Part shown: in pieces, positions 3,204-20,806 of the stretch
Layout: each line of letters starts with the position of its first letter
Position numbering within the stretch: position 1 is the first letter of the stretch
From: Leptonema illini DSM 21528
GTDB taxonomy: Bacteria > Spirochaetota > Leptospiria > Leptospirales > Leptonemataceae
Direction of reading: 5' to 3'
Length of the DNA: 24,000 bases
NCBI RefSeq assembly: GCF_000243335.1
Contig: NZ_JH597773.1
Location: forward strand, 3,008,156-3,032,155
Notes under the pieces: generated by a model
Told to the model about the DNA's origin: nothing
The model's database searches: none
Seen by the model: only the letters and a program-made list of their open reading frames with translations
Made by a program: the position numbers and the translations under genes

Positions 3204-4310
3204 ATGAATACTATGTTTCTCGAGCCTGCTCGCGGCCGGGGAGGCAGTTTCTTCGATCCACAGGAAAAGTCGATTCTCAGGAAGATACGCTCCGTTATGG
3301 AGGCCTTTGAAACGATCTCATACATCTGCGTGCTCGACAGGCGGGCACGCATCGTTCGTATGAACGATCGCTTTGCCGCCCTTTTTGGCGCAGAAAGCGC
3401 CGATTCTACCGGAATGAGCGTCATTCCGTATCTGAAGCGAGCCGGTCTCAGCCGCCTGACCGTTCAGATCTGGAAAACCCTGCACGCTCAAAGCACCCAC
3501 AGACAGGAGCTCGCCCTTGCAGAGAACGGCGAGGCTCCGAAATGGTTCGATATACATGTAACGCCCCACCACGACGAGAACGGACAGATTGCCGGAGCCG
3601 TAGCCGTTCTGCTCGACATCACCGAGCGAAAACACGTCGAAGAGGCGATGGCCTTTCATGCCTATCACGATGCGTTAACCGGCCTTCCCAATCGTCGCCG
3701 CCTTGAGGATCGACTGCATCAGACCCGTCTGCGAGCCGACCGTTTACGCGAAAAGTTCGCTCTTCTTTTCGTCGATCTCGATCGTTTCAAGCAGGTGAAC
3801 GACGTTCACGGCCATCGCATCGGCGACGCCGTTCTGATTGAGGTCGCATCGCGCATCGAAAGCGTTCTGCGAAGAGACGATACGGTATGCCGACAGGGCG
3901 GCGACGAGTTCATCATCCTGCTTCCCGGAATACGACATCCGGCGGCGGCCACAGGCGTGGCTCGAAAGCTCATCGACATCCTTTCACGACCCATCTTTGT
4001 CGATAACACGATCTGCCGCATAGGAGCGAGCGTCGGCATCGCGCTCTATCCCGATCATGATCCGCGACCGGATCGACTGATTCAGCTTGCCGACCGTGCT
4101 ATGTACAGGGCCAAGGCATCGGGACGCGGTCGCTTTGCCTTCTTTGAAGATCTGCCCACACAGGTTGCGCTTCCGATTCGCTTTGAAGAGAGATCCGAAG
4201 AGAGAACGGAAACGCTGAAGATTCCCGAGGCCTGTCATCAGTGCCTTGTCCGCGTTGCCGCTCATGCCGGTCTACCGTCGACCTCGCTTGCCCTGCTTGC
4301 GAAGTCGTAG
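3204..4310 (+). CDS. PAS-GGDEF diguanylate cyclase
   Basis: AGGAG at 3192-3196 sits 7 nt before the ATG. The PAS-like region ends in the typical LLDITERK. The GGDEF domain reads HDALTGLPNRR...FVDLDRFKQVNDVHGHRIGD...RQGGDEFIILLP, with an RxxD I-site (RRDD) exactly five residues upstream of GGDEF. Confidence 0.9.
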   Translation: MNTMFLEPARGRGGSFFDPQEKSILRKIRSVMEAFETISYICVLDRRARIVRMNDRFAALFGAESADSTGMSVIPYLKRAGLSRLTVQIWKTLHAQSTHRQELALAENGEAPKWFDIHVTPHHDENGQIAGAVAVLLDITERKHVEEAMAFHAYHDALTGLPNRRRLEDRLHQTRLRADRLREKFALLFVDLDRFKQVNDVHGHRIGDAVLIEVASRIESVLRRDDTVCRQGGDEFIILLPGIRHPAAATGVARKLIDILSRPIFVDNTICRIGASVGIALYPDHDPRPDRLIQLADRAMYRAKASGRGRFAFFEDLPTQVALPIRFEERSEERTETLKIPEACHQCLVRVAAHAGLPSTSLALLAKS

Positions 4311-4374: not shown

Positions 4375-4812
4375 CTATCGGTTTACGGCGGCGTCGATCT
4401 TCTGTCTGTTTGTCTCAAAGGCCCTCTGAGCATCTTCAGAAAAAAAGGAATCAAAGAAAAACAGATTGGCGCTGCCCGATTCGAGCCGTTGCACGATAGC
4501 CCCCGATGCAATGTCGATCAGCAGAGCGTATCCTGTTGCATTCTTCTGATCGTCGAAGGCCTTGAGGACGCCAAGCCGCTCCGCCTGCCGGCGTGCTGTG
4601 ACAGTCTTTTCATCGTCGGTTAAATCGAAGACGACGACCGTGATTCCTTTTGATTCGGCATAACGCTTCAGATCAGAAAAACCCGGACTGACGTTATCCC
4701 AGCGTTTACACGAAGGGCACCAGTCCGCATGGAATTTTGCAAGCACAAGGCCTTCGGCGGCTAACGGTGACGCTGCGAAAAGTAGGGCCAGCCACAAGAT
4801 GGTTCGTTTCAT
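4375..4812 (-). CDS. Secreted thioredoxin-fold protein (CxxC thiol:disulfide oxidoreductase-like)
   Basis: Signal peptide MKRTILWLALLFAASPLAAEG, then a WCPSCK redox motif. I prefer ATG 4812 (GAGAGG about 10 nt upstream) over the TTG at 4830 used by the ORF track. It lies 26 nt downstream of the cyclase stop on the same strand. Confidence 0.75.
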   Translation of the reverse strand: MKRTILWLALLFAASPLAAEGLVLAKFHADWCPSCKRWDNVSPGFSDLKRYAESKGITVVVFDLTDDEKTVTARRQAERLGVLKAFDDQKNATGYALLIDIASGAIVQRLESGSANLFFFDSFFSEDAQRAFETNRQKIDAAVNR

Positions 4813-4838
4813 ACGTTTTCTACCTCTCAAAATGATAC

Positions 4839-6110
4839 TTACAGGCCTTTCAGCCTGGCATAAAGAGCTTTGAATTCTGCGTTCGGATGATTCGGTCGAT
4901 CCTCAAGCTCGGGGCGGATGCCCTTCACAAGATACATGGCCATATCGCCTTTCCCTTTAACGGGCAGCAGTCCTCGATCTTCGCAGATGAAAAAATCCTT
5001 TACCCGCTCATACATATCCTTAGAAATATTCACCTCACCGGGAAGCCCCGCCGATTCCATACGACTGGCGGTATTCACCGTGTCTCCCCAGACGTCATAG
5101 ACGAATTTATCAGTGCCTACGACTCCCGTTATGACCGGACCGCAATGAATGCCGACGCGCAGCCGCCAGTTCCGCGCCGGTTCGCTTGCAGTTGAATGCC
5201 GCTTCATCAGCTTCTGAAAGCGAAGAGCGCAGAGAACGGCGTCCACAGAGTGTGTTTGATTCTCATCGGGGATTCCACCGGCTGCCATATAGGCGTCGCC
5301 GATCGTCTTGATCTTTTCAAGACCTGTGGCCCGCACGGCATGATCGAACGATGCGAAGAGTTGATCGAGTTCTTTGATAAGTTGCTCGGGATTCAAATCG
5401 GCGCTTGCAGCCGTAAATCCCGTCAGATCGGCAAAAAGCACGGTCGCCGATGAGTAACCACGAGGCGTCACACGATCTCGCTTCTTCAGCTCTTCGGCCA
5501 CGGTGAGCGGTAGAATGTTACGCAACAACCGATCGGATTTCAATCTCTCGAATTCCAGGCTGTTTGTAAGTATAAAGATAAGGATGCCGGTCAGCAGCTG
5601 AACGAAAAGATAATTGCCGCCGGCATCCATCAGGCGATCCTCTCGAGAAGGATACATCGTGATCCATTCCGGATACAGATACTCGATAGAGAAGAGAGAT
5701 CCGACGACGAGCAGCGAGATGCCGTATATCAGATACGGACGGCGCCCATCAAGCAGGATCGTCGCGATGACAAGCGCCGGAATAAAGTAATAATGAGCGC
5801 CGCCGACCGATCCGCCATTCCAAAACCAGTTGAAAGATAAAAAAACCAGAATGGTCAGGTTAAAAAGCCAGAAGAGAGAGCGGTGTTGCGACCGGAACCT
5901 GGAAATAAAGTAATACAGAAGGAAGAGCGAGCCTGAAATGAAATGCAGAAGAAACAGACGCACAGGATCGGGTAGGGTCAGAGCGGCAAACGATCCGAGC
6001 AGATTCAAAACACCGTTCACAATGCTGACAGAATTGAAAAGACGCGCCGAAAGCGGATCAAGACGCGGATCACCGATGAGCCGCACAAGTAAACGCAGAA
6101 GCGGCTTCAT
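4839..6110 (-). CDS. Membrane-anchored class III adenylate cyclase (about six N-terminal TM helices plus one cyclase homology domain)
   Basis: The N-terminal half is polytopic and hydrophobic. The catalytic domain has ATVLFADLTGFT (metal Asp), EKIKTIGDAYMAAGG (specificity Lys plus second metal Asp) and FVYDVWGDTVNTASRME (adenine-specifying Asp plus the Asn/Arg pair). All catalytic residues lie in one chain, so it is a homodimeric type. Confidence 0.9.
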   Translation of the reverse strand: MKPLLRLLVRLIGDPRLDPLSARLFNSVSIVNGVLNLLGSFAALTLPDPVRLFLLHFISGSLFLLYYFISRFRSQHRSLFWLFNLTILVFLSFNWFWNGGSVGGAHYYFIPALVIATILLDGRRPYLIYGISLLVVGSLFSIEYLYPEWITMYPSREDRLMDAGGNYLFVQLLTGILIFILTNSLEFERLKSDRLLRNILPLTVAEELKKRDRVTPRGYSSATVLFADLTGFTAASADLNPEQLIKELDQLFASFDHAVRATGLEKIKTIGDAYMAAGGIPDENQTHSVDAVLCALRFQKLMKRHSTASEPARNWRLRVGIHCGPVITGVVGTDKFVYDVWGDTVNTASRMESAGLPGEVNISKDMYERVKDFFICEDRGLLPVKGKGDMAMYLVKGIRPELEDRPNHPNAEFKALYARLKGL

Positions 6111-6490
6111 GAAATGCCCCCCTGCTCCGTTTTGCGCCCGAGGATCAAGAGGGTGGCGCTTCCTGCGAGAACTGAACAGGCAAGGGCAAAAAGAAGCCCT
6201 CCGTCGTCATGGACGACGATTCCAAGTACGGTCAGATGCAGAATAATCGCAGGCACAATGATCAGAATGGATAACATTGCCCCCCTGCGATACTGAGACG
6301 GCCAGAGAAGAAGAACGGAGGCGATCAATTCAGCGAAGCCTGTAGCATAGCGACCGGCCGGTTCGAGACCGACCGTCTCAAAGATAAAGATAGATTCTGC
6401 AGCGCCGGTGAATTTGAAAAATAGAGTCTGCAGAAAGACTCCGGCAACGATCATTCGCAGAACAAGGATAACGATTTTGCGAGGCTGCAT
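6107..6490 (-). CDS. DoxX-like small integral membrane protein
   Basis: Four hydrophobic helices resemble a DoxX-type pattern (LRMIVAGVFLQTLFFKFTG...GFAELIASVLLLWP...). I prefer ATG 6490; the track ORF starts at a TTG at 6565. Its TGA stop overlaps the cyclase ATG as ATGA at 6107-6110. The family call is by eye only. Confidence 0.55.
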   Translation of the reverse strand: MQPRKIVILVLRMIVAGVFLQTLFFKFTGAAESIFIFETVGLEPAGRYATGFAELIASVLLLWPSQYRRGAMLSILIIVPAIILHLTVLGIVVHDDGGLLFALACSVLAGSATLLILGRKTEQGGIS

Positions 6491-6652
6491 CTTACGCAGA
6501 TTCGCAACATTCGATCTCTGGTTGCATGCAGGACATAGAATAACGATAAAAAATGGCCCTCTCAACTAAAAAATAAACTCCGGTCTTCCTCGTCGCTCTC
6601 ACCTCGTAAGTATCTTTTTTTTGCATTTTTTACGATTCCCAGAAAAAACACC

Positions 6653-7207
6653 GTGACGGTGAAACCAATGTCGATGGTGCACGAAACGTGCAGGATGAGC
6701 TCTCTTAAAGAAACATCCCCCGTTACTTCTCTGCAAACATTGCTGAGTCAGACACGCGATCTGCTTTCACTTATCACAGACGAGCAATACACGAAATGCA
6801 CCGCCAGTACTCAGTCGGGAACAGGATCTCATATTCGACACACTCTCGATCATATTCAAGCGTTGCTCGCCGGCCGTAACGGAAATCCGATCGACTACGA
6901 TACCCGAGAACGCAATACTACAGTAGAACGCTCCCGCATGTCGGCTATCGACGCCATCGACCTTCTCATAAAAGACCTGAACTCACTTTCAGAGCAGGAT
7001 CTCAATAAAACGGTAGAGCTACACCTTCTTCTCTCGCCGTTTCATCCACGCTACCGGACGACATCGACGATCGGTCGAGAGCTGGCCTTCGTAATGCATC
7101 ATGCCATCCATCACAATGCCATCATTGCGATGCTTTTGCGTAATCTGGAAGTCGACATTCCCGACTTTTTTGGCTTTGCCCCGGCAACGATTGAAGTGCT
7201 TTCCTGA
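6653..7207 (+). CDS. DinB-family (DinB_2/YfiT-like) four-helix-bundle metal-binding protein
   Basis: Characteristic spaced histidines: SHIRHTLDHIQALL near the N-terminus and FVMHHAIHHNAIIAMLLR near the C-terminus. The start is uncertain: GTG 6653 in the track, with in-frame ATGs at 6668 and 6695. Confidence 0.7.
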   Translation: MTVKPMSMVHETCRMSSLKETSPVTSLQTLLSQTRDLLSLITDEQYTKCTASTQSGTGSHIRHTLDHIQALLAGRNGNPIDYDTRERNTTVERSRMSAIDAIDLLIKDLNSLSEQDLNKTVELHLLLSPFHPRYRTTSTIGRELAFVMHHAIHHNAIIAMLLRNLEVDIPDFFGFAPATIEVLS

Positions 7208-7216
7208 GACGGAACG

Positions 7217-7945
7217 ATGTGTACGCTGACGATACTGCCCGAATCAAAAGACGGAATTCGGTTCTCGGCCATGATGAATCGGGACGAGTTGAATGAACGG
7301 AAAAAGGCGCTGCCTCCTCTCTTGCGAGATGGCATACTCGCCCCTTGCGACGCCGATGCAGGCGGGACCTGGACCGCCATTAACGAAAGCGGGCTCATAG
7401 GATTCGTGCTTAACCGCACGGAAGAAGGCGATAGATTGAACAGCGGCAGCGTCAGCAGAGGTAGCATTCTGCCGGCGCTGCTTGAGGCCCCTTCGGTTAA
7501 AGATGCGTCTGATCAGTGGCATCGTATTCCATTGCATGACATGAGGCCCTTTTACTGTCTGTTACGAGACCGACAGGAACAGCGCCTTTTCTCGTTCAAC
7601 GGAGAGTCCCTGACACACCGACTTATGGATATAGCCAGCCCTCTGCTACTGACGACCTCGGGACTCGGCGACTCTCTTGTGCATCCCTACCGCGAGTCAT
7701 TGTTTGCCCGGCTTCTCTCGCATCATCCCGACAGAGAGACACAGAGGCAATTCCATCATCATCATGATCCGCGGCATCCCGCCCAGAGCGTTATGATGAT
7801 GCGCGACGATGCACGCACGGTCAGCATTACCTCCTATAACGTACAGATTTCGACTGCCTCTATCGACTACTTTGATATCGACGGATCTACCGTTCGGGCT
7901 CAGCTGAGATTACGCAATGCAAAGGAGTCGCTGTATGCCTCCTGA
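7217..7945 (+). CDS. NRDE-family protein (TANGO2 homologue)
   Basis: It begins Met-Cys (MCTLTIL...) and contains the eponymous NRDE motif (SAMMNRDE), followed by GGTW (ADAGGTWTAINESG). It starts 9 nt after the DinB-family stop. Confidence 0.85.
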   Translation: MCTLTILPESKDGIRFSAMMNRDELNERKKALPPLLRDGILAPCDADAGGTWTAINESGLIGFVLNRTEEGDRLNSGSVSRGSILPALLEAPSVKDASDQWHRIPLHDMRPFYCLLRDRQEQRLFSFNGESLTHRLMDIASPLLLTTSGLGDSLVHPYRESLFARLLSHHPDRETQRQFHHHHDPRHPAQSVMMMRDDARTVSITSYNVQISTASIDYFDIDGSTVRAQLRLRNAKESLYAS

Positions 7946-9521
7946 TCTCTCGTCAGAATGGGCCTTTGCCCTCTCGGTCATTCTTGCGACCTTCATCGCC
8001 GAAGACGCTACGTTAATCGCCGTCGGCCTTGCCATCGGCTCGGGCATCGTCTCGCCTGTAACGGGGCTCGTTTCGGCCTTCACCGGCGTCCTTCTTGGCG
8101 ATACGGGCCTCTGGGTAACGGGGCGCTTTCTACAAAAAACGGGCATGCTTCAACGATGGCAGAGCTTCCGTACGGCATCTGAAAAAGGCGGGGCGATGCT
8201 TGCACGTCATTCGGGCAAGATGATTCTCGCCGCACGCTTTGTTCCGGGATTGCGTCTTCCCGTATATCTTGCGGCGGGATTTTTACATGCAAACGACCGG
8301 AAGAAAGGCCGCCTTTCATCATTTATCATGTTTGCCGCACTCGCAGTGATGCTCTGGACGCCTCTGCTTGTCGGACTTTCGGCTATGCTTGGTGTGGCTG
8401 CGGCCGAAACTTTACAGAGATACTCGTATCTTACGCTTCTTCCGCTTCTATCTGTCGCAATCGTTCCTGTTGTCCGTCTTTCTCGCAAAGGCATCGCCAG
8501 CTGGAAGCGATTTGAGTTCTGGCCTGCATGGATCTTCTATGCTCCCGTCGTTCCCTACATCATATATCAGAGCTTACGCTCCGGCGGATTCGGCGCCGTC
8601 GCAGCGGCTAACCCTTCTATTCCGGGAGGCGGCATCGTCGGCGAATCTAAATTCCAGATTCTGTCTTTGATTCCCGAACATCGCTCCCTTCGAGCTCATT
8701 TCATCGCAGCCGATGCAGATCGAGAGAATTCTATCGATACGGCGATCGCCTCGAAGGCCTTTGATTTTCCCGCGATCATGAAACCCGATGCCTCACAGCG
8801 AGGGGCATCCGTACGTATCCTACAGAATCGCGAACAGATGATCGACTATGTGAAGACTACGCCGGGAGACGTTTTGATTCAGGAGTATCATGCCGGCCCC
8901 GGAGAGGTGGGTATCTTTTATATCAGAGATCCCGACCACGAATCGGGAAGCATCTTTTCAATCACGGGTAAGATCTTTCCCTCAATCCAGGGAGACGGCC
9001 AGAAGACCCTGCGCGAACTCATCGAATCGCACGAGCGCTATCGCTTTCAGAAGTCGGTCTTCTTTGAGCGGTTCAAGGACCGTCTGCATACCGTTCCCGA
9101 AAACGGCATAACGGTTTCGCTCGGGCGGGTGGGTAACCATTGTCAGGGCACGCTCTTCTACGATCGCAGCGATCTGATCACGCCCGAGCTAACGATGGCC
9201 GTCGATGCTATGGCCCGATCGATGAACGGCTTCTACTTCGGGCGATTTGATATTCGTTTCGAATCGGAACAGGCCCTGAAAGCAGGGCAGGACTTCTACG
9301 TCGTCGAAGCAAACGGCGTCACCTCGGAGTCCACGAATCTGTACGATCCTTCGTTCTCTCTCTTGCAGGCATACTCCATATTGTTCAAGCAATGGAAGGC
9401 TCTTTTTACGATCGCTCGCAAGAATCGCAGACGAGGCCTTCCCGGAGTCAGCATAATCCGGATCGCCCGGGAAACGCTACATTACTACAGAAACAGAGAA
9501 TTCACGGCGGCATCGGACTGA
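7935..9521 (+). CDS. Fusion protein: N-terminal DedA/VTT membrane domain plus C-terminal ATP-grasp carboxylate-amine ligase domain
   Basis: I prefer ATG 7935 (AGGAG at 7922-7926, 8 nt upstream), which overlaps the NRDE gene by 11 nt. DedA/VTT motifs: FIAEDATLIAVG, LLGDTGLWVTGRF, AARFVPGLRLPVYLAAG. ATP-grasp motifs: FPAIMKPDASQRGASVRIL, VLIQEYHAGPGEVGIFY, FGRFDIRFES...DFYVVEANGVTSEST. The ATP-grasp subfamily cannot be resolved by eye. Confidence 0.8.
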   Translation: MPPDLSSEWAFALSVILATFIAEDATLIAVGLAIGSGIVSPVTGLVSAFTGVLLGDTGLWVTGRFLQKTGMLQRWQSFRTASEKGGAMLARHSGKMILAARFVPGLRLPVYLAAGFLHANDRKKGRLSSFIMFAALAVMLWTPLLVGLSAMLGVAAAETLQRYSYLTLLPLLSVAIVPVVRLSRKGIASWKRFEFWPAWIFYAPVVPYIIYQSLRSGGFGAVAAANPSIPGGGIVGESKFQILSLIPEHRSLRAHFIAADADRENSIDTAIASKAFDFPAIMKPDASQRGASVRILQNREQMIDYVKTTPGDVLIQEYHAGPGEVGIFYIRDPDHESGSIFSITGKIFPSIQGDGQKTLRELIESHERYRFQKSVFFERFKDRLHTVPENGITVSLGRVGNHCQGTLFYDRSDLITPELTMAVDAMARSMNGFYFGRFDIRFESEQALKAGQDFYVVEANGVTSESTNLYDPSFSLLQAYSILFKQWKALFTIARKNRRRGLPGVSIIRIARETLHYYRNREFTAASD

Positions 9522-9575
9522 CGCCCGGGCCCAAAACCCAGGGAGGATTGCAGGACCGGCTCTCAGGAGGAGTGT

Positions 9576-10322
9576 ATGAAAACAGAATTGAAACAGGCAT
9601 ATATTGCGCGAACCGAAGCGGAGCGTTATGCCGCCAGCCGACTGCGTCATGAGGTTTTCGCCGTCGAACAGGGAAGAGGAACAAGCGGGGGCGAAGACGG
9701 CCTTGATCGAGACCGATTCGACGACCATTGCGAGCATCTTATCGTGCCACATCCCGATAGAGCCGATACCGTGATCGGCACCTACCGCATCCTTCTTTCA
9801 GACGTGGCCGAGGCCGGGCCGGGCTACTACTCCGAGACGGAGTTCGATATGAGCGGCATACGAGCGTTACCCATACGCAAAGCAGAGATCGGACGCAGCT
9901 GCGTTCATCCTGATTTTCGCGACGGCAGCGTTATCCGACTTTTGTGGAGCGGCCTTGTTCGATTCATGCAGGAATCCGACGTCGGCTGCTTTATGGGCTG
10001 CGGCTCATTAACAGGTCAGGATGTCGAGCTTGCCGAGATCACATACGCCTGCTTTCGTGATGCGGGTCGCGTCATCTCGGGCAATGCGGTTCGTCCGGTT
10101 CCCGAGGCGGCGCTGCCCGGATTCCGAACCGATATCAGACCTGACGATGCAAAAGCAGCGATGAGACGTATGCCACCGCTGATGAAAGGCTATCTGCGAG
10201 CAGGGGCCTGTATTGCGGGCCCTCCGGCCTGCGATCGGGTATTCGGAAGCATCGATTTCTTTCTGATCTTCTTTCCCGCATCGGGGAATTCAGAATATAA
10301 AAAGCATTTCGGACTGACGTAG
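9576..10322 (+). CDS. GNAT-fold N-acyltransferase of the OlsB/FeeM (N-acyl amino acid synthase, 'putative hemolysin') type
   Basis: AGGAGG at 9565-9570 sits 5 nt before the ATG. The pattern is LRHEVFAVEQGRG...DRDRFDDHCEHLIV...VIGTYRIL...YYSETEFDM...EIGRSCVHPDFRDGSVIRLLWSGL, the layout of acyl-ACP-dependent amino acid N-acyltransferases. Confidence 0.7.
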   Translation: MKTELKQAYIARTEAERYAASRLRHEVFAVEQGRGTSGGEDGLDRDRFDDHCEHLIVPHPDRADTVIGTYRILLSDVAEAGPGYYSETEFDMSGIRALPIRKAEIGRSCVHPDFRDGSVIRLLWSGLVRFMQESDVGCFMGCGSLTGQDVELAEITYACFRDAGRVISGNAVRPVPEAALPGFRTDIRPDDAKAAMRRMPPLMKGYLRAGACIAGPPACDRVFGSIDFFLIFFPASGNSEYKKHFGLT

Positions 10323-10329
10323 CGAGCCG

Positions 10330-11640
10330 TCACACGCGCAATCGAAAGGCGCTTACGGGCTGATCGTTACCCTTCACCTTCATGGGTTCAAGCGCCTCGA
10401 ATCGTAAACCATGAGCGGCACCGGGATCACCTTCGGCTAACGTCAGAACTTTTTCGTAAGTGGTCTGGTCGCAATAAATCGAATCAGAGGCCTGCATGAG
10501 TCGGGCGGCAAGGTTCACGACGTTACCGTGCATCGTGTATTCGCTGCGAATCTCGTTACCCATCGGACCGACAAAGACGACTCCGGTGCCGATGCCGATG
10601 ACGGCCTTATGCCCCATCTCGCCGAGCTCGGTGAAGATATCGCGAGCCGAAAGCAGGGCGCGCACGGCGTCGTCAGGATGATCGAGAGGCGGTAATCCGA
10701 AGGCGGCGAGAATGACCGTACCCTTTTCCTCAATCCCGAAACGATTGATGGCTCCCTCATGACGGTACAGACCGTCCTGCACCTTGCGCATCACGCGATG
10801 GACCTCTTCAATCGGCAGCTCGGCCGTATGCCATTCAAGAATCCGAATAAAAAGAACGGTTACCGTGCGCACCTCGAAAGCGGCGGAGCCGCCGCGGCCC
10901 TCTTCTATGAGATTGATGATACGTCGCGGAATAAAGCAACGCAACGCCTTCTCACAACCGGGCTGTAAGGCGGGGATGGCAAGAGGACCCGGTGCTTCGG
11001 CCTCCGGACGGTGCTCGACAAGAAGTCGATTGCCTTCCCGATGCCCCGCCTTCATTGAGCGGATCATACGCGCCGCCTGGGGCGAGATCACGACCTGGCC
11101 TGGCTCGGCCTGCTTTTGCGCCCGGCCCACCTGGTCGACGGCATCGCCACCGATCAGAAACTCCCAGCGGTCGTACAGGCCGCCAACCATCTGGGCAAGC
11201 AGCGGTCCGGCGCCGACTCCGATACGCAAAGAAAGCTCCATGCCTGAACCGATCTTCGTTCTGTCGAGCTGGCGCTGTAGCTCCAGGCCGCAATGAGCGG
11301 CGCGCAGGGTCATCTGAGCCAGCTCCTTTTCTGAGGTGGCAGGCCAGACGGCGATCAGGGCATCACCGGCAAATTTCAGAATATCACCGCCGAATTCGTC
11401 GATGATGTCGATCTGGCGGCTGAGATACAGGTTTACGATATCGGCGAGTTCGATCAGGCCATTGGAGGATAGCTTCATAATCCTCTCAGTCAGAGAGGTA
11501 AAGCCGGCCATATCGGCGAAAAGCGCTGCTCCGACGATGCTCTCGGCCACAGGACGCTCGGGAGGGGCCGGATGTTCGACGAGATGTTCGAGAACCAGGC
11601 GAGGTGCATATTTGTGTAGCTTATTCAGGAATTCTGACAT
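10330..11640 (-). CDS. Soluble class III nucleotidyl cyclase with two tandem cyclase homology domains (sAC-like pseudo-heterodimer)
   Basis: I prefer ATG 11640 (MSEFLNK...). CHD1 keeps both metal Asp residues (AALFADMAGFT; KFAGDALIAVW) but lacks the Asn of the Asn/Arg pair (GGDAVDQVGRAQ). CHD2 has lost the metal Asp residues (VTVLFIRILEW; EEKGTVILAAFG) but keeps the Asn/Arg pair (EYTMHGNVVNLAARLMQA), with Thr at the position of the adenine-specifying Asp. Confidence 0.85.
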   Translation of the reverse strand: MSEFLNKLHKYAPRLVLEHLVEHPAPPERPVAESIVGAALFADMAGFTSLTERIMKLSSNGLIELADIVNLYLSRQIDIIDEFGGDILKFAGDALIAVWPATSEKELAQMTLRAAHCGLELQRQLDRTKIGSGMELSLRIGVGAGPLLAQMVGGLYDRWEFLIGGDAVDQVGRAQKQAEPGQVVISPQAARMIRSMKAGHREGNRLLVEHRPEAEAPGPLAIPALQPGCEKALRCFIPRRIINLIEEGRGGSAAFEVRTVTVLFIRILEWHTAELPIEEVHRVMRKVQDGLYRHEGAINRFGIEEKGTVILAAFGLPPLDHPDDAVRALLSARDIFTELGEMGHKAVIGIGTGVVFVGPMGNEIRSEYTMHGNVVNLAARLMQASDSIYCDQTTYEKVLTLAEGDPGAAHGLRFEALEPMKVKGNDQPVSAFRLRV

Positions 11641-11864
11641 CCGACCCGCCTGGATTCTGAGACAGGAAATCCGCACTTCGCAGGCTTTGCAACTGTTATC
11701 GGCTCTTTGATGGGCAATACTGCAGAGGTCCGATGAAAAATGTTCGCAGAAAAAAGATTGGAAAACAGTCGGCTGAGACCGGAAAAGAAAAACGCCAGTA
11801 AAGGGGAAAAACGATCGACCTACCCCTTCGTTTTATTTGAATCTTCCTTCAGGATAAGAGCTAT

Positions 11865-13673
11865 ATGGATTTTCCGCAGATAGACTTCCGCAGGCTGACC
11901 ATCCGTACAGAAATCTACACGCACCTTCTTCCCATCCCGATCTACACCTACTATGCGATGCTTGCATCGGATTTCGATCCGGATTTTCTTATCTCTGTTG
12001 GTATTGGAGCGACTATCGGCGCTACCATAGCGGCCACGATTGGTGTGCTCAGCCGATATCTGTACTCGAAGCGCATTAACGCCAGACTGCGCCGGTTTGT
12101 CGAAGGTCAGGCAGAGGCCGGCACTGTTCTTTACTCTCTGCTTCGCGTCCCTGCCTTCGAGGCTGGCCTGTTCAGCTTTCGCTGGATTTTTGGCCTTGGA
12201 TGTGCCGTTCTGAGCATCCATCTACTGCGAGGCCTTACTCCGTTTCAGGCCTGGACCGTGCTCGGCTTTCTTCCCTTTACCCTGCCCATCAACGTGCTCG
12301 GTCCCTATCACATTGCCGAAGAGCAGATACGCGAGACTCTTTCCCATCGAGCATTGCTTGATCCGCGGCTGCAGGCCTCTGAGTTTCGAACGAATTCCTT
12401 TTTTCTGCGCACGCTTCTCATTGCCGGCGCTGTCGCATTCACGCCGGCCGGCATGCTGGGAATCCTGCTGTATATCGTTGCAAGCGGTCACATATCCATC
12501 TCGCATCCGCTGTTGCATCTTGCCGTAATCTTTCCTCTTTACGGAATATCTGTCATTTACATGATTCGCCTGGCAACGGCAGCTTCGCGGCGTGCCCTGC
12601 AATCGCTGGGAGACGGCCTTGCGCGCGTCAGCGACGGTAACCTGAGTATCAGATTACCCGTAACGGGCAGAGATGAGATCGGCCTTCTCAGCCATTATGC
12701 AGACGGGCTGGCTTCAGAGATGCGTAAGGTGGTCGGCTTCGTGCAGGAACAATCTCGACATCAACTTCACTACGCCACACAGCTACGCAACGAAGGGGAA
12801 CAGCTTTTACAGGGAACACAGAGATCGACGACCGAGAGCGGCCGTATTCTGAGCGATCTCGCTCGCCTCGAAGAACTCGGACGGAGCATTGACGCCTCTG
12901 CGCGATCGCAGGCGGATCGCATACGGGAAACCGACCGCCGCATCGGGCTTTTCAGCGAAGAGATGCAAAAGGCCTCTCAGGAAGCAGAAGAGCGCGAACG
13001 AACCAATCGCCTGATGGAGCAGACGGCTCATGATGTAACGGAAAAGGGAGAGCAGCTATTTGAGCAGGCACGTCATGTTATCGACGAAATCGGGCAGAGC
13101 ACCGATCAAATCAGAAGCATCATAGAGACGATCGGCGAAGTGGCGGATCGCGTTAACCTGCTCTCGCTGAACGCTTCGATTGAAGCGGCCCGCGCCGGAG
13201 AACATGGCCGGGGTTTTGCCGTCGTCGCCTCTGAGGTTTCGAAATTAGCCGATCGCACACAGGAGAGCACAAAGGAAATATCGTCGGCCGTCTCGCGATC
13301 GGTATCAAGTACGGAGCGAGGGCTTCAGGCGCTTGACGAACTCTCGCTGTCTTTTGACGAAGGCATGTCTCTCATCCGCACCTATGCTACGTTTTCCACT
13401 GAGCTGGTGCGTCGACTGCAGAAGCATGCCGCAGAAAACGCCGAGATGCGAAGCGACGTCGCCGAGCTTGTAAGGCTTGCCGAGTCCATCTCGCAGGCCA
13501 CGCAAGAACAATCACAGAAGCAATCCACCGTGCGCGATGCCGTAAAAGAACTGGGGCAGATCGAAGGCCACGCTGCGGAGCTGGCCGCTCAGCTCAGTCA
13601 GATGGCCTCGCTGCTTGGAGAACAGGCCGACGAATTCAATCGAAGGATCGGTCGCTACAGCGCCTCTGATTGA
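11865..13673 (+). CDS. Methyl-accepting chemotaxis protein with a polytopic membrane N-terminus and a HAMP domain
   Basis: Highly conserved MCP hairpin-tip sequence [46 protein letters not shown]-like [39 protein letters not shown]. Several N-terminal TM helices. Confidence 0.9.
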
Positions 13674-13702
13674 CGCAGCGGATCGGCGAAAAAGCTTCGC
13701 CT

Positions 13703-14884
13703 ATGATCTCAGTCGGAACTCCGTCCTCATCCACCGCCACCAAGCTGCTGCTGCTCGGTTCGGGCGAACTTGGCCGTGAAGTCGCCATCGAGGCGATTCG
13801 CTTTGGAATCCATGTCGTCGCCTGCGACCGCTATGAAGGTGCGCCGGCCATGCAGGTGGCGCAGGAAAGGCGGGTCTTCTCGATGCTCGACGAAGAGGCC
13901 CTCAGACGCACGATTGAAGAGGTGCAGCCGGCCCTGATCGTCCCTGAAATCGAGGCCATCGCCACGCACGTTCTGCTTGAATACGAAGAAAAGGGCATGA
14001 CGGTTATTCCCACGGCAAAGGCCGCACGCCTTACGATGGATCGCGAAGGCATCCGTCGTTTTGCCGCCGAGACGCTCGCTCTGCCCGTTTCGCAATACCG
14101 CTTTGCCGGCACACGCGAAGAGTATGCGCAGGCGGTGCGTGAGATCGGCCTGCCCTGCGTCGTGAAGCCGGTGATGAGCTCTTCGGGCAAAGGGCAGAGT
14201 ATCGTACGCACGGAAGCCGAGATCGATAAGGCCTTTGATTATGCGCAGAGTGGAGGTCGCGCCGGAGCGGGCCGCATGATCGTCGAAGAGTTTATTCCCT
14301 TCGATTATGAGATCACTCTGTTAACCGTGCGCCATGAAGGCGGTACGTCCTTCTGTGAGCCGATCGGGCATCTGCAGATCGACGGTGATTACCGTGAGTC
14401 GTGGCAGCCGCAGCCGATGAGCGAGGCGGCGCTTGCGAAGGCAAAGCAGATCTCGGCGAAGCTTACGGAGGGACTGGGTGGACGCGGTATCTTCGGAGTG
14501 GAGCTTTTTGTAAAAGGCGATGACGTCTATTTCAGCGAGGTCTCACCCCGTCCGCATGATACGGGCATGGTGACTCTGATCTCGCAGGATCTGAGCGAGT
14601 TTGCGCTTCATGTGCGGGCCATTCTCGGTCTGCCCATTCCGGGCATTCGCCAGTTCGGACCGGCGGCCTCGGCCGTTATTCTGCCCGAAGGGAATAGCAG
14701 CAGCATGGTGTACGAGAATCTTGATGCCGCTCTGCGCGAAGTCGATACGGGGCTGCGCATCTTCGGCAAGCCGGAGATTCAGGGGCATCGCCGACTTGGC
14801 GTCGCCTTCGCTCTTGGCGCTACGATCGATGAGGCGCGAGCGAAGGCCCGTAATAGCGCCGCTCAGGTAAACGTGCGCATGTAG
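13703..14884 (+). CDS. purT: Formate-dependent phosphoribosylglycinamide formyltransferase (GAR transformylase 2)
   Basis: Near-colinear with E. coli PurT as I recall it: [118 protein letters not shown] prefer ATG 13703 over the TTG at 13670. Confidence 0.95.
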
Positions 14885-16267: not shown

Positions 16268-17689
16268 ATGAATACCGTGCTGTCAGCTCTCAGGCAGATC
16301 GTCAGAAGAGGCCACTGGAAAGGAGAAGGCGGCTACCGCGAGGTGCTTGCCATCTCGGTTCCGCTTATTCTCAGTACGTCGGCATGGTCGCTACAGATGT
16401 TCGTCGACCGCACATTTCTCAGCTGGTATTCGCCTGAAGCCCTTGCCGCCTCGCTGCCGGCCGGCATTCTCAATATTACGACGACAAGCATCTTCGCCGG
16501 CACAGCCGGATACGTCAGCGTTTTCGTCTCTCAGTATTACGGAGCAGGCCGTTTTTCACGTATGGGATCGGCGATGTGGCAGGGCATCTATATTGCTCTG
16601 ATCGGCGGCTTTATTCATCTGCTTCTGATTCCCTTTGCTCCGCAGATCTTCGCCCTGTTCGGCCATGAACCTGCCGTGCAGCGATTCGAGTCCGAGTATT
16701 TTCAGATGCTCTGTCTGGGTGCCGCTCCGCATATCGCATCCGCTGCTTTCTCGGGTTACTTCACCGGCATCGGTCGCACCTGGCCCGTTATGTGGATCAA
16801 CTTCGTAGCGACGGGCTTCAACCTAACGCTTGATTACGTTTTGATCTTCGGCAAATTCGGATTCCCCGAGATGGGCATGAAAGGCGCCGGCATCGCCACC
16901 TCGGCAGCAGCCGTCGTCTATTGCATTCTCTATGTCGGCCTGTTTTATATTCCGGGCTTCGCCGAAAACGACAACGCTCTCAGGCAGTGGCGCCTCGATC
17001 TCGAACTGTTCAAGCGTCTGATTCGCTTCGGACTTCCAAGCGGAATGCAGTTCTTCATCGATCTGGCGGGCTTCACGGGTTTCATTCTCATCGTCGGCCA
17101 TCTCGGAACCGAAGACCTGGCCGCGACAAACGTCGCCTTCAACGTGAACACGATCGCCTTCATGCCGATGATGGGGCTTGGCTTCGCCATCTCGATCCTT
17201 GTCGGCAAGTACCTCGGCGCCGAGAAGCCGCCGCTGGCCGAGTCGAGCTCTATTGCGGGCTTTCATCTTTCGTTCGCCTACATGAGCTTCATGGGGCTGT
17301 GCTATATCGCCCTGCCCTCGCTTTTTCTACTGCCGTTCGAGTTAGGCGCAGACCCTGAACGATTCGCCCCGGTCGCCGAGAAAGCGAAGATCCTTCTTCG
17401 CTTTCTCGCTCTGTTCGCCCTCTTTGACGGAATGAACATCATCTTTTCGTCGGCGTTAAAGGGCGCCGGCGATACGCGTTTCGTTATGTTCATGTTAACG
17501 ACGATGGCCATCTTCGGTCTGGTTCTACCCGTCGGCCTGGCCGTGTATTACTTTCAGGCGAATATCTACACGGTCTGGACGATCGCGACGGTGTACGGCC
17601 TGGTCCTTGCCCTTGGCTTCTTCGTGCGCTTCTCTCTCGGCCACTGGAAAGAGATGCGCGTCATCGAAGAGGCACCGCCTCTCGACTAA
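16268..17689 (+). CDS. MATE-family multidrug/toxin efflux transporter
   Basis: About 12 TM helices with a duplicated 6+6 layout and a typical MATE N-terminus (EVLAISVPLILSTSAWSLQMFVDRTFLSWYSPEALAA). The second half reads LIRFGLPSGMQFFIDLAGFTGFILIVGHLGTEDLAATNVAFN. I prefer ATG 16268. The track start at 16121 overlaps the divergent NUDIX gene. Confidence 0.9.
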   Translation: MNTVLSALRQIVRRGHWKGEGGYREVLAISVPLILSTSAWSLQMFVDRTFLSWYSPEALAASLPAGILNITTTSIFAGTAGYVSVFVSQYYGAGRFSRMGSAMWQGIYIALIGGFIHLLLIPFAPQIFALFGHEPAVQRFESEYFQMLCLGAAPHIASAAFSGYFTGIGRTWPVMWINFVATGFNLTLDYVLIFGKFGFPEMGMKGAGIATSAAAVVYCILYVGLFYIPGFAENDNALRQWRLDLELFKRLIRFGLPSGMQFFIDLAGFTGFILIVGHLGTEDLAATNVAFNVNTIAFMPMMGLGFAISILVGKYLGAEKPPLAESSSIAGFHLSFAYMSFMGLCYIALPSLFLLPFELGADPERFAPVAEKAKILLRFLALFALFDGMNIIFSSALKGAGDTRFVMFMLTTMAIFGLVLPVGLAVYYFQANIYTVWTIATVYGLVLALGFFVRFSLGHWKEMRVIEEAPPLD

Positions 17690-17729
17690 ACGCAGGCGGC
17701 AACATAGCGAAAAGGAGGCGGATAGGCAG

Positions 17730-18218
17730 ATGAGGAACATGACGATACTGCTTTTCATTTCATTGATATTGTGTCACACCCAGGGAATTATTGCCAGGCA
17801 AGAAACACTCCCTCAGAATCGTGCACAGGACTGTATTGAATTCAACGAAAGCATTCTAACTCTGTTTTCTGGAGCTGAAGGAATGATGTTTCTCTGGGAG
17901 GCATCTTATAGCGAAAGAACTGCTTCTGGCGACTGGCCAGATTACGGCCCGGGCCTGGTTTGCATTACGTTCATAAACGCAGGCGGGGAACAGATCCCTG
18001 GCGAATTCATTCATTACAAAGGAAACGTGCTTTATCGGTTAGTCGTGTATGAGAAGCCAGAATATGCGGTACAGGCTGCGGCTACGGCGTTCAAACGAGA
18101 AAGGACGATGGTTCGTGGGAACAGGCTGTTTACATATGCCGTTGATCAGGGGAACAGAAAAAATGTCTCTCCGATGATCCTGAAGGCTGCCGAAGATTTC
18201 TTGAATCGTCAGGATTGA
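17730..18218 (+). CDS. Hypothetical secreted protein with no recognisable family
   Basis: AGGAGG at 17713-17718 sits 11 nt before ATG 17730. Signal-peptide-like start MRNMTILLFISLILCHTQGIIA. The rest has no motif I recognise. The sequence is visibly more A+T-rich than its neighbours. Confidence 0.6.
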   Translation: MRNMTILLFISLILCHTQGIIARQETLPQNRAQDCIEFNESILTLFSGAEGMMFLWEASYSERTASGDWPDYGPGLVCITFINAGGEQIPGEFIHYKGNVLYRLVVYEKPEYAVQAAATAFKRERTMVRGNRLFTYAVDQGNRKNVSPMILKAAEDFLNRQD

Positions 18219-20709: not shown

Positions 20710-20806
20710 GGGTTTGTATAAAAAGACCTTTGTTTCTGATTCAATATCGGCCTGCCTCTCTTTTTTTTCCTGTCCTTTTCCGGGCCGCTTCCGGTTTCTG
20801 ATCATC

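Follow-up and report, generated by a model that had tools for sequence, protein, structure and literature searches.

The question raised by this locus is whether four tightly packed genes from a Leptonema illini-lineage genome form one functional unit, and on which substrate such a unit would act. The genes lie on one strand at positions 6653–10322 of the window—that is, the whole 24,000-nucleotide stretch that was analyzed—and, according to the ORF listing, encode in order a DinB_2 protein, a TANGO2/NRDE protein with a Met-Cys start, a DedA/VTT::ATP-grasp fusion, and an OlsB-like GNAT. The relevant features are as follows.

4375–4830, minus strand: thioredoxin-like protein, member of a minus-strand trio
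4839–6110, minus strand: adenylate cyclase, member of the same trio
6107–6565, minus strand: DoxX-family small membrane protein (Pfam DoxX, E 9e-6)
6653–7207, plus strand: gene 1, DinB_2-family four-helix-bundle metalloprotein (Pfam DinB_2 and DinB; AF2; Foldseek)
7217–7945, plus strand: gene 2, TANGO2/NRDE-family protein with Met-Cys N-terminus (Pfam TANGO2, E 3.8e-14)
7917/7935–9521, plus strand: gene 3, whole ORF (ORF listing)
7935–8486, plus strand: N-terminal half of gene 3, DedA/VTT membrane domain (Pfam VTT_dom)
8509–9521, plus strand: C-terminal half of gene 3, interfacial helix followed by ATP-grasp carboxylate-amine ligase domain (Foldseek, family profile)
9576–10322, plus strand: gene 4, OlsB-family amino-acid N-acyltransferase, an Acetyltransf_5 GNAT (Pfam, NCBIfam)

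Gene packing and the encoded proteins

The spacing described in the sequence-only reading is matched by the ORF coordinates, with a 9-nt gap between genes 1 and 2, a 54-nt gap between genes 3 and 4, and, if gene 3 starts at ATG 7935, an 11-nt overlap of genes 2 and 3. ATG 7935 is the gene-caller start of the 528-residue gene 3 orthologue. The Shine-Dalgarno sequences noted before genes 3 and 4 were also found, as AAGGAG 7 nt 5′ of this ATG and as AGGAGG, respectively. Terminator-like hairpins are not enriched within the four-gene block (8, versus 5.2 ± 2.3 in shuffled sequence), the interval between genes 3 and 4 gives no terminator signal above background, and a single weak sigma-70-like match overlaps the start of gene 4. 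The packing is not mere chance; other phyla carry this gene set as well.

The four domain assignments made from the sequence were upheld, by Pfam for DinB_2, TANGO2, VTT_dom, and Acetyltransf_5 and by structure prediction for ATP-grasp. Gene 1 (DinB_2, E 1.8e-9), whose true start is probably ATG 6668, as chosen by L. illini gene callers to give 179 residues, encodes a protein of the DinB fold whose predicted metal site is conserved and rich in His: His60, His63, Asp66, His150, His153, and His154 are at least 90% conserved among 66 cluster-linked homologues, and the AF2 model (pLDDT 83.9) matches DinB/YfiT structures, mycothiol S-transferase, and BstA in Foldseek.

Gene 2 encodes a TANGO2-family member that retains the Cys2/NRDE active-site signature. 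The Met-Cys start pointed out earlier is borne out by Cys2 in 55/55 homologues, with the N21-R22-D23-E24 motif likewise conserved, and the family profile matches solved human TANGO2 (9bwa, 8sv7; E 1e-8), with an alignment confined to the N-terminal ~130 residues. A published proposal (PMC13044924) makes TANGO2 a Cys-Ntn hydrolase whose structure resembles those of BSH, acid ceramidase, and NAAA, all fatty-amide hydrolases, and TANGO2 has been shown to bind acyl-CoA via the NRDE motif (PMC11867700). The gene 2 product would be an amidohydrolase or acyltransferase of the cysteine N-terminal-nucleophile type, an enzymatic role that is putative as for every TANGO2. Human TANGO2, the protein of TANGO2 deficiency disorder, shares with gene 2 the Pfam family, Cys2, NRDE, and the profile match, whereas a conserved association with lipid enzymes, in operons and in fusions, is limited to bacterial homologues; the module would offer a bacterial handle on the function of a human disease protein.

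In gene 3 (residues numbered from the 534-residue ORF starting at 7917), the DedA/VTT half spans approximately residues 10–190, is all-helical in the AF2 model (pLDDT 85.9 for the protein), and matches VTT_dom over residues 32–155 (E 2.3e-10; 41.4 bits, cut-off 33.9). The acidic and arginine positions of the DedA/VTT family, which includes the undecaprenyl-phosphate transporter UptA, E. coli YqjA/YghB, and the eukaryotic VMP1/TMEM41B scramblases, are invariant (E29, D30, D62, R107, P110, G111, and R113 being the invariant residues). The NCBIfam matches to UptA and DedA are weak—UptA being the best though very weak—and lie far below the equivalog cut-offs (20 vs 250 bits). A conserved interfacial helix with an EFWPxWxFY motif follows.

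The C-terminal half of gene 3 has no Pfam match and no phmmer match to PDB sequences. Its ATP-grasp fold was confirmed in the predicted structure, which matches the ATP-grasp modules of GshF (3ln6), CphA1 (7wae, 7txv), and Ddl at a Foldseek probability of 1.0, and a search with the family profile finds the CphA1 G domain (E 1.5e-4), with the KP..G..G and E-x-N motifs aligned. With K289, P290, R295, Q322, E330, R443, D445, R447, E464, and N466 invariant, the ligase domain looks catalytically intact from its sequence. It shares fold and ATP/Mg motifs with the cyanophycin synthetase G domain, the GshF module, Ddl, and RimK, and shares the "GDGxST..ELI" insert with CphA1; however, identity to these C-terminal-carboxylate ligases is only 10–19%, it matches no Pfam ATP-grasp model significantly, and the DedA domain and interfacial helix stand where those ligases normally have an N-terminal pre-ATP-grasp domain. 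No description of a DedA domain fused to an ATP-grasp enzyme was found in the searchable literature.

Gene 4 encodes an OlsB-family N-acyltransferase (Acetyltransf_5, E 6e-30), its best NCBIfam matches being two OlsB models over the full length (E 5e-40). Its scores are 138 and 131 bits, well short of the respective equivalog cut-offs (350 and 320 bits). It groups with OlsB/OlsF-type N-acyltransferases rather than with small-molecule acetyltransferases, in line with the initial assignment, and its nearest metagenomic relatives (36–43% identity) belong to ordinary OlsB-PlsC pairs.

Conservation and linkage to aminolipid synthases

The DedA::ATP-grasp fusion family comprises ~1,900 representatives at 50% identity from at least seven phyla. 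The survey covered 84 fusion loci, 53 of them well flanked, in Planctomycetota, Acidobacteriota, Verrucomicrobiota, Gemmatimonadota, Rhodothermales/Balneolaceae, Leptospirales, Sumerlaeia, and Desulfobacterales; none of the 84 is from Acetobacteraceae or Bacteroidales. Among the well-flanked loci, the DinB gene, the partner most tightly linked to the fusion gene, adjoins it in 42/53, and the TANGO2 gene is adjacent in 37/53. A close DoxX homologue directly precedes DinB or follows the ATP-grasp gene in 24/53, across several phyla, making DoxX the fifth conserved member of the cluster. In Leptonema the DoxX gene, the first of its minus-strand trio, is divergent from gene 1 and lies outside the block originally delimited. 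Furthermore, 79 of 281 fusion-family members carry an N-terminal alpha/beta-hydrolase domain, and two of these (P0152 and P0153) additionally carry TANGO2 with the MC start intact; these rare TANGO2::hydrolase::DedA::ATP-grasp fusions tie the parts of the module to one another.

The co-occurrence in other genomes on which the sequence-only reading had staked its claim was therefore observed, with a modified membership. DinB, TANGO2, and DedA::ATP-grasp, often with DoxX, form the conserved unit; this trio was recovered from Phycisphaerales, Leptospiraceae, and other contigs. Gene 4 is a frequent but not obligate associate, an OlsB-like aminolipid synthase lying within the 10-kb search range in 27/53 well-flanked loci. 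For a gene with one or two copies per genome, we estimate that less than 1% of genomes would carry it by chance within ±10 kb of a given locus. At least four arrangements occur: OlsB-OlsA upstream of DinB, a convergent OlsF-like fusion, OlsB(-PlsC) downstream, and a synthase 5–6 kb upstream (Verrucomicrobiota). In loci such as L049 and L026, the synthases are placed as members of the same operon, separated by short intergenic gaps.

The window contains no PlsC-type or OlsA gene, as the sequence-only reading had said, but its corollary that the system is not of the classical olsBA kind does not generalize: in 26/27 cases the neighboring synthase either has an OlsA-like PlsC partner gene or takes the OlsF-like form, a PlsC::OlsB fusion, exemplified by a PlsC-type protein with OlsA as best match (L049, E 7.5e-41) and a 700-residue protein with OlsF as best match (L007, E 8e-118). 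This makes the module an addition to the usual synthesis of acyloxyacyl aminolipids, with Leptonema as an outlier in having no O-acyltransferase gene adjacent to gene 4. The linkage is one-way: none of 80 loci centered on the nearest OlsB relatives contains the module, which therefore accompanies only some aminolipid pathways, as an accessory, and the coupling is not obligate. Overall, the genes and DoxX constitute a cross-phylum cluster repeatedly found beside OlsBA-type or OlsF-type synthases, and the earlier observation, domains, and co-occurrence stood, but the four-gene core and the argument against olsBA did not.

A possible role in head-group extension

By gene neighborhood and family analogy, we tentatively read the block, with somewhat less than even confidence, as the Leptonema version of a widespread, uncharacterized accessory module of acyloxyacyl-aminolipid (ornithine-lipid-type) pathways, which would extend the head group through an ATP-dependent amide and translocate the product. 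The module probably modifies and moves amino-acid lipids. The order of steps suggested in the sequence-only reading (N-acylation, ATP-grasp amide formation, DedA flipping) is plausible and largely adopted here. OlsB would form an N-(3-hydroxyacyl) amino acid, with a second acyl chain perhaps added by an OlsA encoded elsewhere. The cytoplasmic ATP-grasp domain, which the DedA domain would keep at the membrane, would convert the free alpha-carboxylate of the lipid to an acyl-phosphate and join this to an amine or an amino acid. C-terminal carboxylates are activated in the same way by its nearest relatives, namely glutathione synthetase, Ddl, RimK, and the G domain of cyanophycin synthetase. The product would be an extended or amidated head group, as in a lipodipeptide or cerilipin-like lipid. 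DedA proteins being a family of lipid scramblases and flippases, the DedA domain would supply the substrate or carry the product across the inner membrane. The TANGO2-like Cys-Ntn enzyme, acting as a fatty-amide amidase, may serve in editing or turnover by hydrolyzing or transferring a fatty-amide bond or a head-group amide, and the DinB protein and DoxX may carry out some metal- or redox-dependent tailoring step. That the DinB step stays unspecified counts against this reading, given the tight DinB linkage, as do the roughly half of well-flanked loci with no aminolipid synthase inside 10 kb, the 80 OlsB-centered loci devoid of the module, and the lack of an OlsA gene in the window and of a reported Leptonema aminolipid.

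The overall logic would resemble that of MprF, in which an aminoacyl-phosphatidylglycerol synthase is fused to a flippase and partnered by hydrolases; in the domain layouts of the module, a head-group enzyme is likewise fused to a putative lipid-translocating domain, with a hydrolase adjacent or fused. There is no homology, however: gene 3 has neither the MprF synthase nor the MprF flippase domain (Pfam), its membrane domain is DedA/VTT, and it would use ATP instead of aminoacyl-tRNA. Similarly, OlsBA and OlsF (S. meliloti OlsB/OlsA; S. proteamaculans OlsF; Bacteroides GlsB/GlsA) share with the locus a full-length OlsB-family GNAT, and lie beside the module as a pair or fusion in relatives, but OlsBA has the OlsA partner that the Leptonema window lacks.

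In favor of this reading, some known aminolipid head-group chemistry is still without enzymes. No gene has been assigned to ATP-dependent taurine transfer to ornithine lipid, and Ser-Gly and Orn-Ser-Gly head groups are known, with glycine lipid as the precursor of the Ser-Gly lipid (PMC12971839). Cerilipin (Gluconobacter cerinus) and the Ser-Gly and Orn-Ser-Gly lipids require the chemistry proposed here, an ATP-requiring amide on the head-group carboxylate (PMC12971839), but the makers of cerilipin and flavolipin show no link to the fusion family in the 84 loci. None of the aminolipid pathways described in PMC12971839 includes DinB, TANGO2, DedA::ATP-grasp, or DoxX; no characterized system of such composition, as had been supposed, and no report of a Leptonema aminolipid was found in the searchable literature.

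Alternative readings and redox neighbors

A rather unlikely alternative is that DinB-TANGO2-DedA::ATP-grasp(-DoxX) is self-contained and acts on another membrane-bound substrate, such as the head group of a phospholipid or a cell-envelope precursor linked to polyprenyl phosphate, with aminolipid synthases nearby through a common envelope-remodeling or stress regulon. The polyprenyl-phosphate candidate fits DedA proteins such as UptA and those ATP-grasp ligases that extend peptidoglycan precursors with amino acids, and UptA is the best, if very weak, match of the DedA half. Consistent with self-containment, 26/53 well-flanked loci have no OlsB-like gene nearby, the trio stands alone in Leptospiraceae and Phycisphaerales loci, and the OlsB-centered loci lack the module. 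However, co-regulation alone hardly explains OlsBA and OlsF-like genes at operon positions, and unbiased neighbor clustering recovered no recurrent peptidoglycan, LPS, or phospholipid genes.

The same loci recurrently contain redox partners (DoxX, a YHS protein, Ferric_reduct::Rieske, and Rieske::FMN_red) together with Cys-rich domain proteins, and these partners fit a simple ligase-flippase model poorly. They suit a membrane-associated low-molecular-weight-thiol or redox-detoxification system, in which the ATP-grasp domain would resemble glutathione synthetase, DinB would be a thiol S-transferase of the mycothiol/bacillithiol type, the Cys-Ntn protein an EgtC-like amidohydrolase, and DoxX and the Rieske proteins a quinone/electron link. 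The glutathione-synthetase module of GshF is indeed the top structural match of the ATP-grasp domain, but not a specific one, because the Foldseek E-values of GshF, CphA1, and Ddl are similar. The characterized structural neighbors of gene 1 are mycothiol S-transferase and BstA, and in a 72%-identical relative (L001) EgtB-like and EgtD-like genes are inserted directly after gene 4; this adjacency is confined to that locus, however, and absent among recurrent neighbor families. Leaving the invariant DedA fusion and the OlsBA/OlsF linkage without a role, this explanation is improbable.

Heme or metal trafficking—with TANGO2 as a heme chaperone alongside Ferric_reduct heme-b, YHS, and the DinB metal site, and OlsB adjacency incidental—would also accommodate the recurrent Ferric_reduct::Rieske, YHS, and Cys-rich proteins. 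It is very improbable: the heme-trafficking role proposed for TANGO2 homologues is disputed by recent work, as discussed in PMC12782551 and PMC13044924, the ATP-grasp ligase, DedA domain, and aminolipid synthases are left unexplained, and no YHS, Ferric_reduct, or Rieske-type partner lies in the window. Finally, a chance placement of gene 4 beside the trio, the four genes not being one functional unit, would agree with the core trio without gene 4 in three Leptospirales loci (L003, L038, and L046) and with a 54-nt gap that could fit a promoter, but is highly unlikely given the unremarkable terminator signal before gene 4, the same adjacency in unrelated phyla in several arrangements, and its conservation between Leptonema lineages that are 72–92% identical.

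Gene layout and protein families of the cluster

Four same-strand open reading frames (g1–g4) were located at 6653–10322 of the window, where the sequence-only reading had placed an undescribed lipid operon, and a fifth gene lies divergently just beyond them.

Genes of the cluster (position, strand, product)
6653–7207, +: g1, DinB_2-family protein
7217–7945, +: g2, TANGO2-family protein
7917/7935–9521, +: g3, VTT/DedA domain (residues 32–155) fused to an ATP-grasp domain
9576–10322, +: g4, Acetyltransf_5 protein
6107–6565, −: DoxX protein, divergent from g1

The spacing is as had been claimed, with a 9-nt gap between g1 and g2, an 11-nt overlap between g2 and g3 (counted from ATG 7935) and a 54-nt gap between g3 and g4, and strong Shine–Dalgarno sequences precede g3 (AAGGAG, 7 nt 5′ of ATG 7935) and g4 (AGGAGG). 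ATG 7935 is also the start chosen by gene callers for the 528-aa g3 orthologue. Terminator-like hairpins did not exceed their frequency in shuffled sequence, a promoter scan was uninformative, and an Rfam scan of the window detected neither riboswitches nor any other RNA. At 92% identity, the cluster of g3 includes WP_002773260.1 (Leptonema illini DSM 21528) and a 534-aa protein from an L. illini metagenome-assembled genome (MAG). Contigs of the L. illini type show full synteny with the window, and the same five genes are kept in a 72%-identical relative.

The family assignments made from the sequence alone were upheld for all four proteins. In g3, the VTT_dom match scores 41.4 bits versus a Pfam gathering score of 33.9. 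The C-terminal two-thirds of the protein has no Pfam match, ATP-grasp models included; NCBIfam ATP-grasp models match g3 at E values of about 1e-3, far under their cut-offs, two g3 relatives reach RimK at E 3e-5, and a phmmer search of the C-terminal half against PDB sequences gave no match, a family profile being needed. With an AlphaFold2 model built from 42 homologues (pLDDT 85.9), Foldseek assigned the C-terminal region to the ATP-grasp fold at a probability of 1.0, the top matches being the glutathione-synthetase module of GshF, the G domain of cyanophycin synthetase (CphA1), and D-Ala-D-Ala ligases (Ddl). The family profile also reached the CphA1 G domain by sequence (E 1.5e-4), and in this alignment the lysine of KP..G..G, the E-x-N magnesium site, and a common 'GDGxST..ELI' insert all match up; none of K289/P290, R295, E464, and N466 varies among 42 g3-family sequences. 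Neither Pfam nor NCBIfam matched an MprF flippase or aminoacyl-PG synthase domain in g3, and the likeness to MprF is one of architectural logic only.

The Met-Cys-initiated g2 protein matches Pfam TANGO2 at 53.9 bits versus 22.6. Its Cys2 is kept in 55 of 55 cluster-linked homologues, and the N21-R22-D23-E24 motif is conserved. Although phmmer with g2 alone found no match among PDB sequences, the family profile reached the solved TANGO2 structures 9bwa and 8sv7 at E 1e-8. For g1, the DinB_2 match (38.5 bits versus 24.8) is accompanied by a four-helix-bundle fold and a His-triad metal site (His63, His150, and His154, plus His60 and His153); His60, His63, Asp66, His150, His153, and His154 are conserved in the cluster-linked homologues. 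The g1 model was built from 12 homologues obtained by a word-indexed search, a number sufficient for a confident model but not for describing the breadth of the family. Foldseek related it to DinB/YfiT proteins, MST, and BstA, with uncharacterised structural-genomics proteins as top matches and thiol S-transferases as the nearest characterised neighbours. Finally, g4 matches Acetyltransf_5 (E 6e-30), and its two best NCBIfam matches, over the full length (residues 8–245), are models of OlsB, the L-ornithine N-alpha-acyltransferase, which moves a 3-hydroxyacyl group from acyl-ACP onto the alpha-amine of ornithine. The scores of 138 and 131 bits lie below the equivalog cut-offs of 350 and 320, so that g4 is assigned by sequence to the OlsB family and not to the OlsB equivalog function.

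Conservation of the module and its relation to aminolipid synthases

The g3 family gave more than 3,000 word-indexed matches, with 1,910 representatives at 50% identity in an exhaustive profile search (E ≤ 1e-30). Eighty-four loci were fetched from Planctomycetota, Acidobacteriota, Verrucomicrobiota, Gemmatimonadota, Rhodothermales/Balneolaceae, Leptospirales, Sumerlaeia, and Desulfobacterales, and were scanned with HMMs of the proteins in the window and of their neighbours; the neighbour counts cover the 53 loci flanked by 6 kb or more on each side. Beside the fusion gene, DinB homologues were found at 42 of these 53 loci, TANGO2 homologues at 37, OlsB-like genes at 27, and DoxX homologues at 24. 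The genes therefore do co-occur in other genomes, and the recurrence of DoxX makes it a conserved cluster member. The proposal of a four-gene operon accordingly stood in part, with corrections to the conserved core, to the extent of the cluster, and to its relation to olsBA. The MAGs of L008, L049, L059, L060, and L065 are labelled 'Alcaligenaceae' or 'Heliomicrobium sp.' and carry clusters resembling the planctomycete and acidobacterial types; these labels may be unreliable.

The OlsB-like neighbour takes at least four arrangements relative to the module of DinB, TANGO2, and DedA::ATP-grasp.

Arrangements of the OlsB-like gene (position, genes, hosts)
Upstream, same operon: OlsB-PlsC-DinB-(TANGO2)-(Hyd::)DedA::ATP-grasp; Acidobacteriota, Rhodothermales, Gemmatimonadota, some Planctomycetota (loci L049, L026)
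Convergent, directly downstream: 700-aa PlsC::OlsB fusion; Planctomycetota, Vicinamibacterales, a Desulfobacterales MAG (locus L007)
Downstream, same strand: OlsB-like gene; Leptonema and Sumerlaeia, followed in Sumerlaeia by a PlsC gene
5–6 kb upstream: OlsB-like gene; Verrucomicrobiota

From the lack of a PlsC-type O-acyltransferase it had been argued that the cluster is not the classical olsBA ornithine-lipid pair. The observation holds, in that no PlsC/OlsA-like open reading frame was found across the 24-kb window, but the argument does not extend to the relatives: an O-acyltransferase partner accompanies the relatives' synthases in 26 of 27 cases, and its absence here is thus a peculiarity of the Leptonema lineage and no argument against kinship with olsBA. 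An OlsA may be encoded elsewhere in the Leptonema genome. The separate PlsC-type gene (of L049) matches the lyso-ornithine-lipid O-acyltransferase OlsA best (E 7.5e-41), and the PlsC::OlsB fusion (of L007) matches the bifunctional OlsF best (E 8e-118). The module is an accessory to ordinary acyloxyacyl-aminolipid synthesis, and the link is one-directional: of the 80 metagenomic loci that stand closest to g4 (36–43% identity), almost all are simple OlsB-PlsC pairs, and DinB, TANGO2, and the fusion gene were found near none. The pattern scan for g4 relatives used a 6-sequence OlsB alignment, a 13-sequence alignment being too divergent.

OlsF-like PlsC::OlsB genes were seen at 17 loci (within L007–L039, and L066 and L068; for example, L007 12773–14875, minus strand) from Planctomycetota, Vicinamibacterales and other Acidobacteriota, and a Desulfobacterales MAG. 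A 2026 review (PMC12971839) notes a lack of functional evidence for several of the orders with OlsF-like synthases here. TANGO2 is present at 16 of the 17 OlsF-like loci versus 6 of 17 loci with a separate upstream OlsB-OlsA pair.

Gene fusions provide further information. Among 281 retrieved members of the g3 family, 197 are DedA::ATP-grasp proteins, and 79 have an N-terminal alpha/beta-hydrolase domain. Two of the 281 (P0152 and P0153) are TANGO2::TM::hydrolase::DedA::ATP-grasp proteins, with the N-terminal cysteine of the TANGO2 domain retained in P0152 (N-terminus MCTVT); these two proteins are a separate line of evidence for joint action of g2 and g3. A single transmembrane helix divides the hydrolase domain from the N-terminal Cys-Ntn domain, which suggests that the hydrolase domain may face the periplasm. 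The fused alpha/beta-hydrolase domain is conceivably an OlsI-like O-acyltransferase (PMC12493201). Split halves of the fusion are rare: DedA and ATP-grasp are separated by a 193-nt gap, possibly a frameshift, in L027, and ATP-grasp alone follows TANGO2 in L068. An alpha/beta-hydrolase at 20708–21826 of the window was considered as a member of the system and rejected, its match to the relatives' fused hydrolase domain being generic (55 bits).

In other phyla, several further families are repeatedly found next to the module, and none of them occurs in the window: a secreted protein of the YHS-domain (seleno)protein type upstream of DoxX, a Ferric_reduct::Rieske membrane protein, a Rieske::FMN-reductase (Rieske::FMN_red) protein, and a Cys-rich domain with the motif KCYLGVMxPGxGKxHxxCAxxCIxGGxPP and no Pfam or NCBIfam match. 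These redox/metal neighbours point to a redox step beyond the present model. Examples lie at L004 4680–6531, L026 5031–6950, L007 11652–12830, and L031 8211–8846.

Proposed role in aminolipid head-group extension

The closest structural relatives of the ATP-grasp half (GshF, CphA1, Ddl, and RimK) all activate a C-terminal alpha-carboxylate and add an amine to it, and DedA/VTT proteins such as UptA, VMP1, and TMEM41B are lipid scramblases or transporters; the DedA half of g3 is by analogy a putative scramblase or transporter. At the membrane surface, an N-acyl amino acid lipid exposes a carboxylate of exactly this kind. Whereas the identities of the domains, the conservation of their active sites and of the cluster, and the fusions are observed, the mechanism is inferred: g3 would ligate an amine or amino acid onto the head-group carboxylate of the lipid made by OlsB and would pass the lipid over the membrane. 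This model of head-group ligation and translocation, drawn by analogy with characterised relatives, is tentatively preferred, at somewhat less than even confidence.

Defects in TANGO2 cause severe human metabolic disease, and the function of the protein is disputed, with proposals of a heme carrier, an acyl-CoA binder, or a Cys-Ntn hydrolase. Its structural relatives are the fatty-amide hydrolases BSH, acid ceramidase, and NAAA (PMC13044924), and it binds acyl-CoA via the NRDE motif (PMC11867700); amide hydrolase/acyltransferase activity is putative for TANGO2 proteins, human TANGO2 included (PMC13044924). In light of these relatives and of acyl-CoA binding, g2 is most simply regarded as a putative amidase or transacylase of aminolipids, which would work on the same lipids as g3.

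The main rival explanation is that the module acts on some other membrane substrate and is merely co-regulated with the aminolipid genes. We regard this rival as possible but rather unlikely. A thiol/redox role, to which the structural neighbours of g1 and the Rieske-containing neighbours would be suited, is improbable. A heme or metal role, recalling the proposed heme carriage by TANGO2 and the ferric-reductase-like neighbours, is very improbable, and equally so is a chance adjacency of g4, against which the recurrence of OlsB-like genes across phyla speaks.

The system is most likely a member of the known class of aminolipid-modification systems, assembled from known families. Its gene composition and the DedA::ATP-grasp enzyme are undescribed, and there is a real chance that it is more than a variant of that class. 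As the sequence-only reading had held, no description of a system with this composition was found in the searchable literature, in which no paper combines 'ornithine lipid' and 'DedA'. Acyloxyacyl aminolipids were reviewed in March 2026 (PMC12971839). That review makes no mention of ATP-grasp, DedA, DinB, TANGO2, or DoxX, describes the ATP-dependent taurine transferase that makes cerilipin from ornithine lipid as still unidentified, gives Ser-Gly and Orn-Ser-Gly as head groups and names no enzyme for their extension, and never discusses a flippase or transport. The membrane-anchored DedA::ATP-grasp protein clustered with OlsBA/OlsF is a concrete candidate for both head-group extension and transport.

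In its fullest form, the proposal would make DedA::ATP-grasp the first lipid head-group ligase to run on ATP independently of tRNA and to carry its own scramblase as a fused domain, producing extended aminolipids in at least seven phyla, with a TANGO2 homologue editing them; this conjunction is unlikely to hold as a whole. If it did, the extended aminolipids (lipodipeptides or amidated ornithine-type lipids) would be a class so far unrecognised in at least seven bacterial phyla, and the linked, sometimes fused TANGO2 homologue would be a Cys-Ntn amidase/acyltransferase editing fatty-amide lipids, so that a class of enzymatic substrates would for the first time be defined for TANGO2 proteins. 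The finding bears on two questions. One is which enzymes extend and transport aminolipid head groups; the other is what TANGO2 does, for which a bacterial homologue with the same Cys2 and NRDE motif, in a conserved operon with genes for making and modifying fatty-amide lipids, offers a tractable system with respect to the amidase hypothesis. With about 1,900 representatives at 50% identity in abundant environmental phyla rich in 'unidentified aminolipids', a new lipid class could matter ecologically, and experiments are feasible since L. illini DSM 21528 is cultured.

Genomic surroundings in Leptonema

Genes around the cluster in the window (position, strand where noted, product)
3204–4310: GGDEF protein
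4375–4830, −: thioredoxin-like protein, 8 nt after the adenylate cyclase
4839–6110, −: membrane-anchored class III adenylate cyclase, overlapping DoxX (6107–6565) by 4 nt
10330–11676, −: second adenylate cyclase, abutting g4
11865–13673: MCP
13670–14884: PurT, formate-dependent GAR transformylase, an unrelated ATP-grasp enzyme

With adenylate cyclases, a GGDEF protein, and an MCP close by, the cluster sits in a signalling-rich region. The DoxX, adenylate cyclase, and thioredoxin-like genes (4375–6565, minus strand) look like one operon divergent from g1, and conservation of this trio is limited to the Leptonema lineage. In the 72%-identical relative (locus L001, 11033–13131), EgtB-like (DinB_2 + FGE-sulfatase) and EgtD-like (Methyltransf_33) genes of the ergothioneine type lie between g4 and the adenylate cyclase; they are not in the window. 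A link to ergothioneine was rejected as lineage-specific, these genes not being among the recurrent neighbour families. A 203-aa open reading frame at 17607–18218 has no Pfam match; in L. illini it is annotated as a hypothetical protein of 162 aa. The longest PurT reading frame begins at a TTG overlapping the MCP gene, and L. illini gene callers start it later, giving 393 aa.
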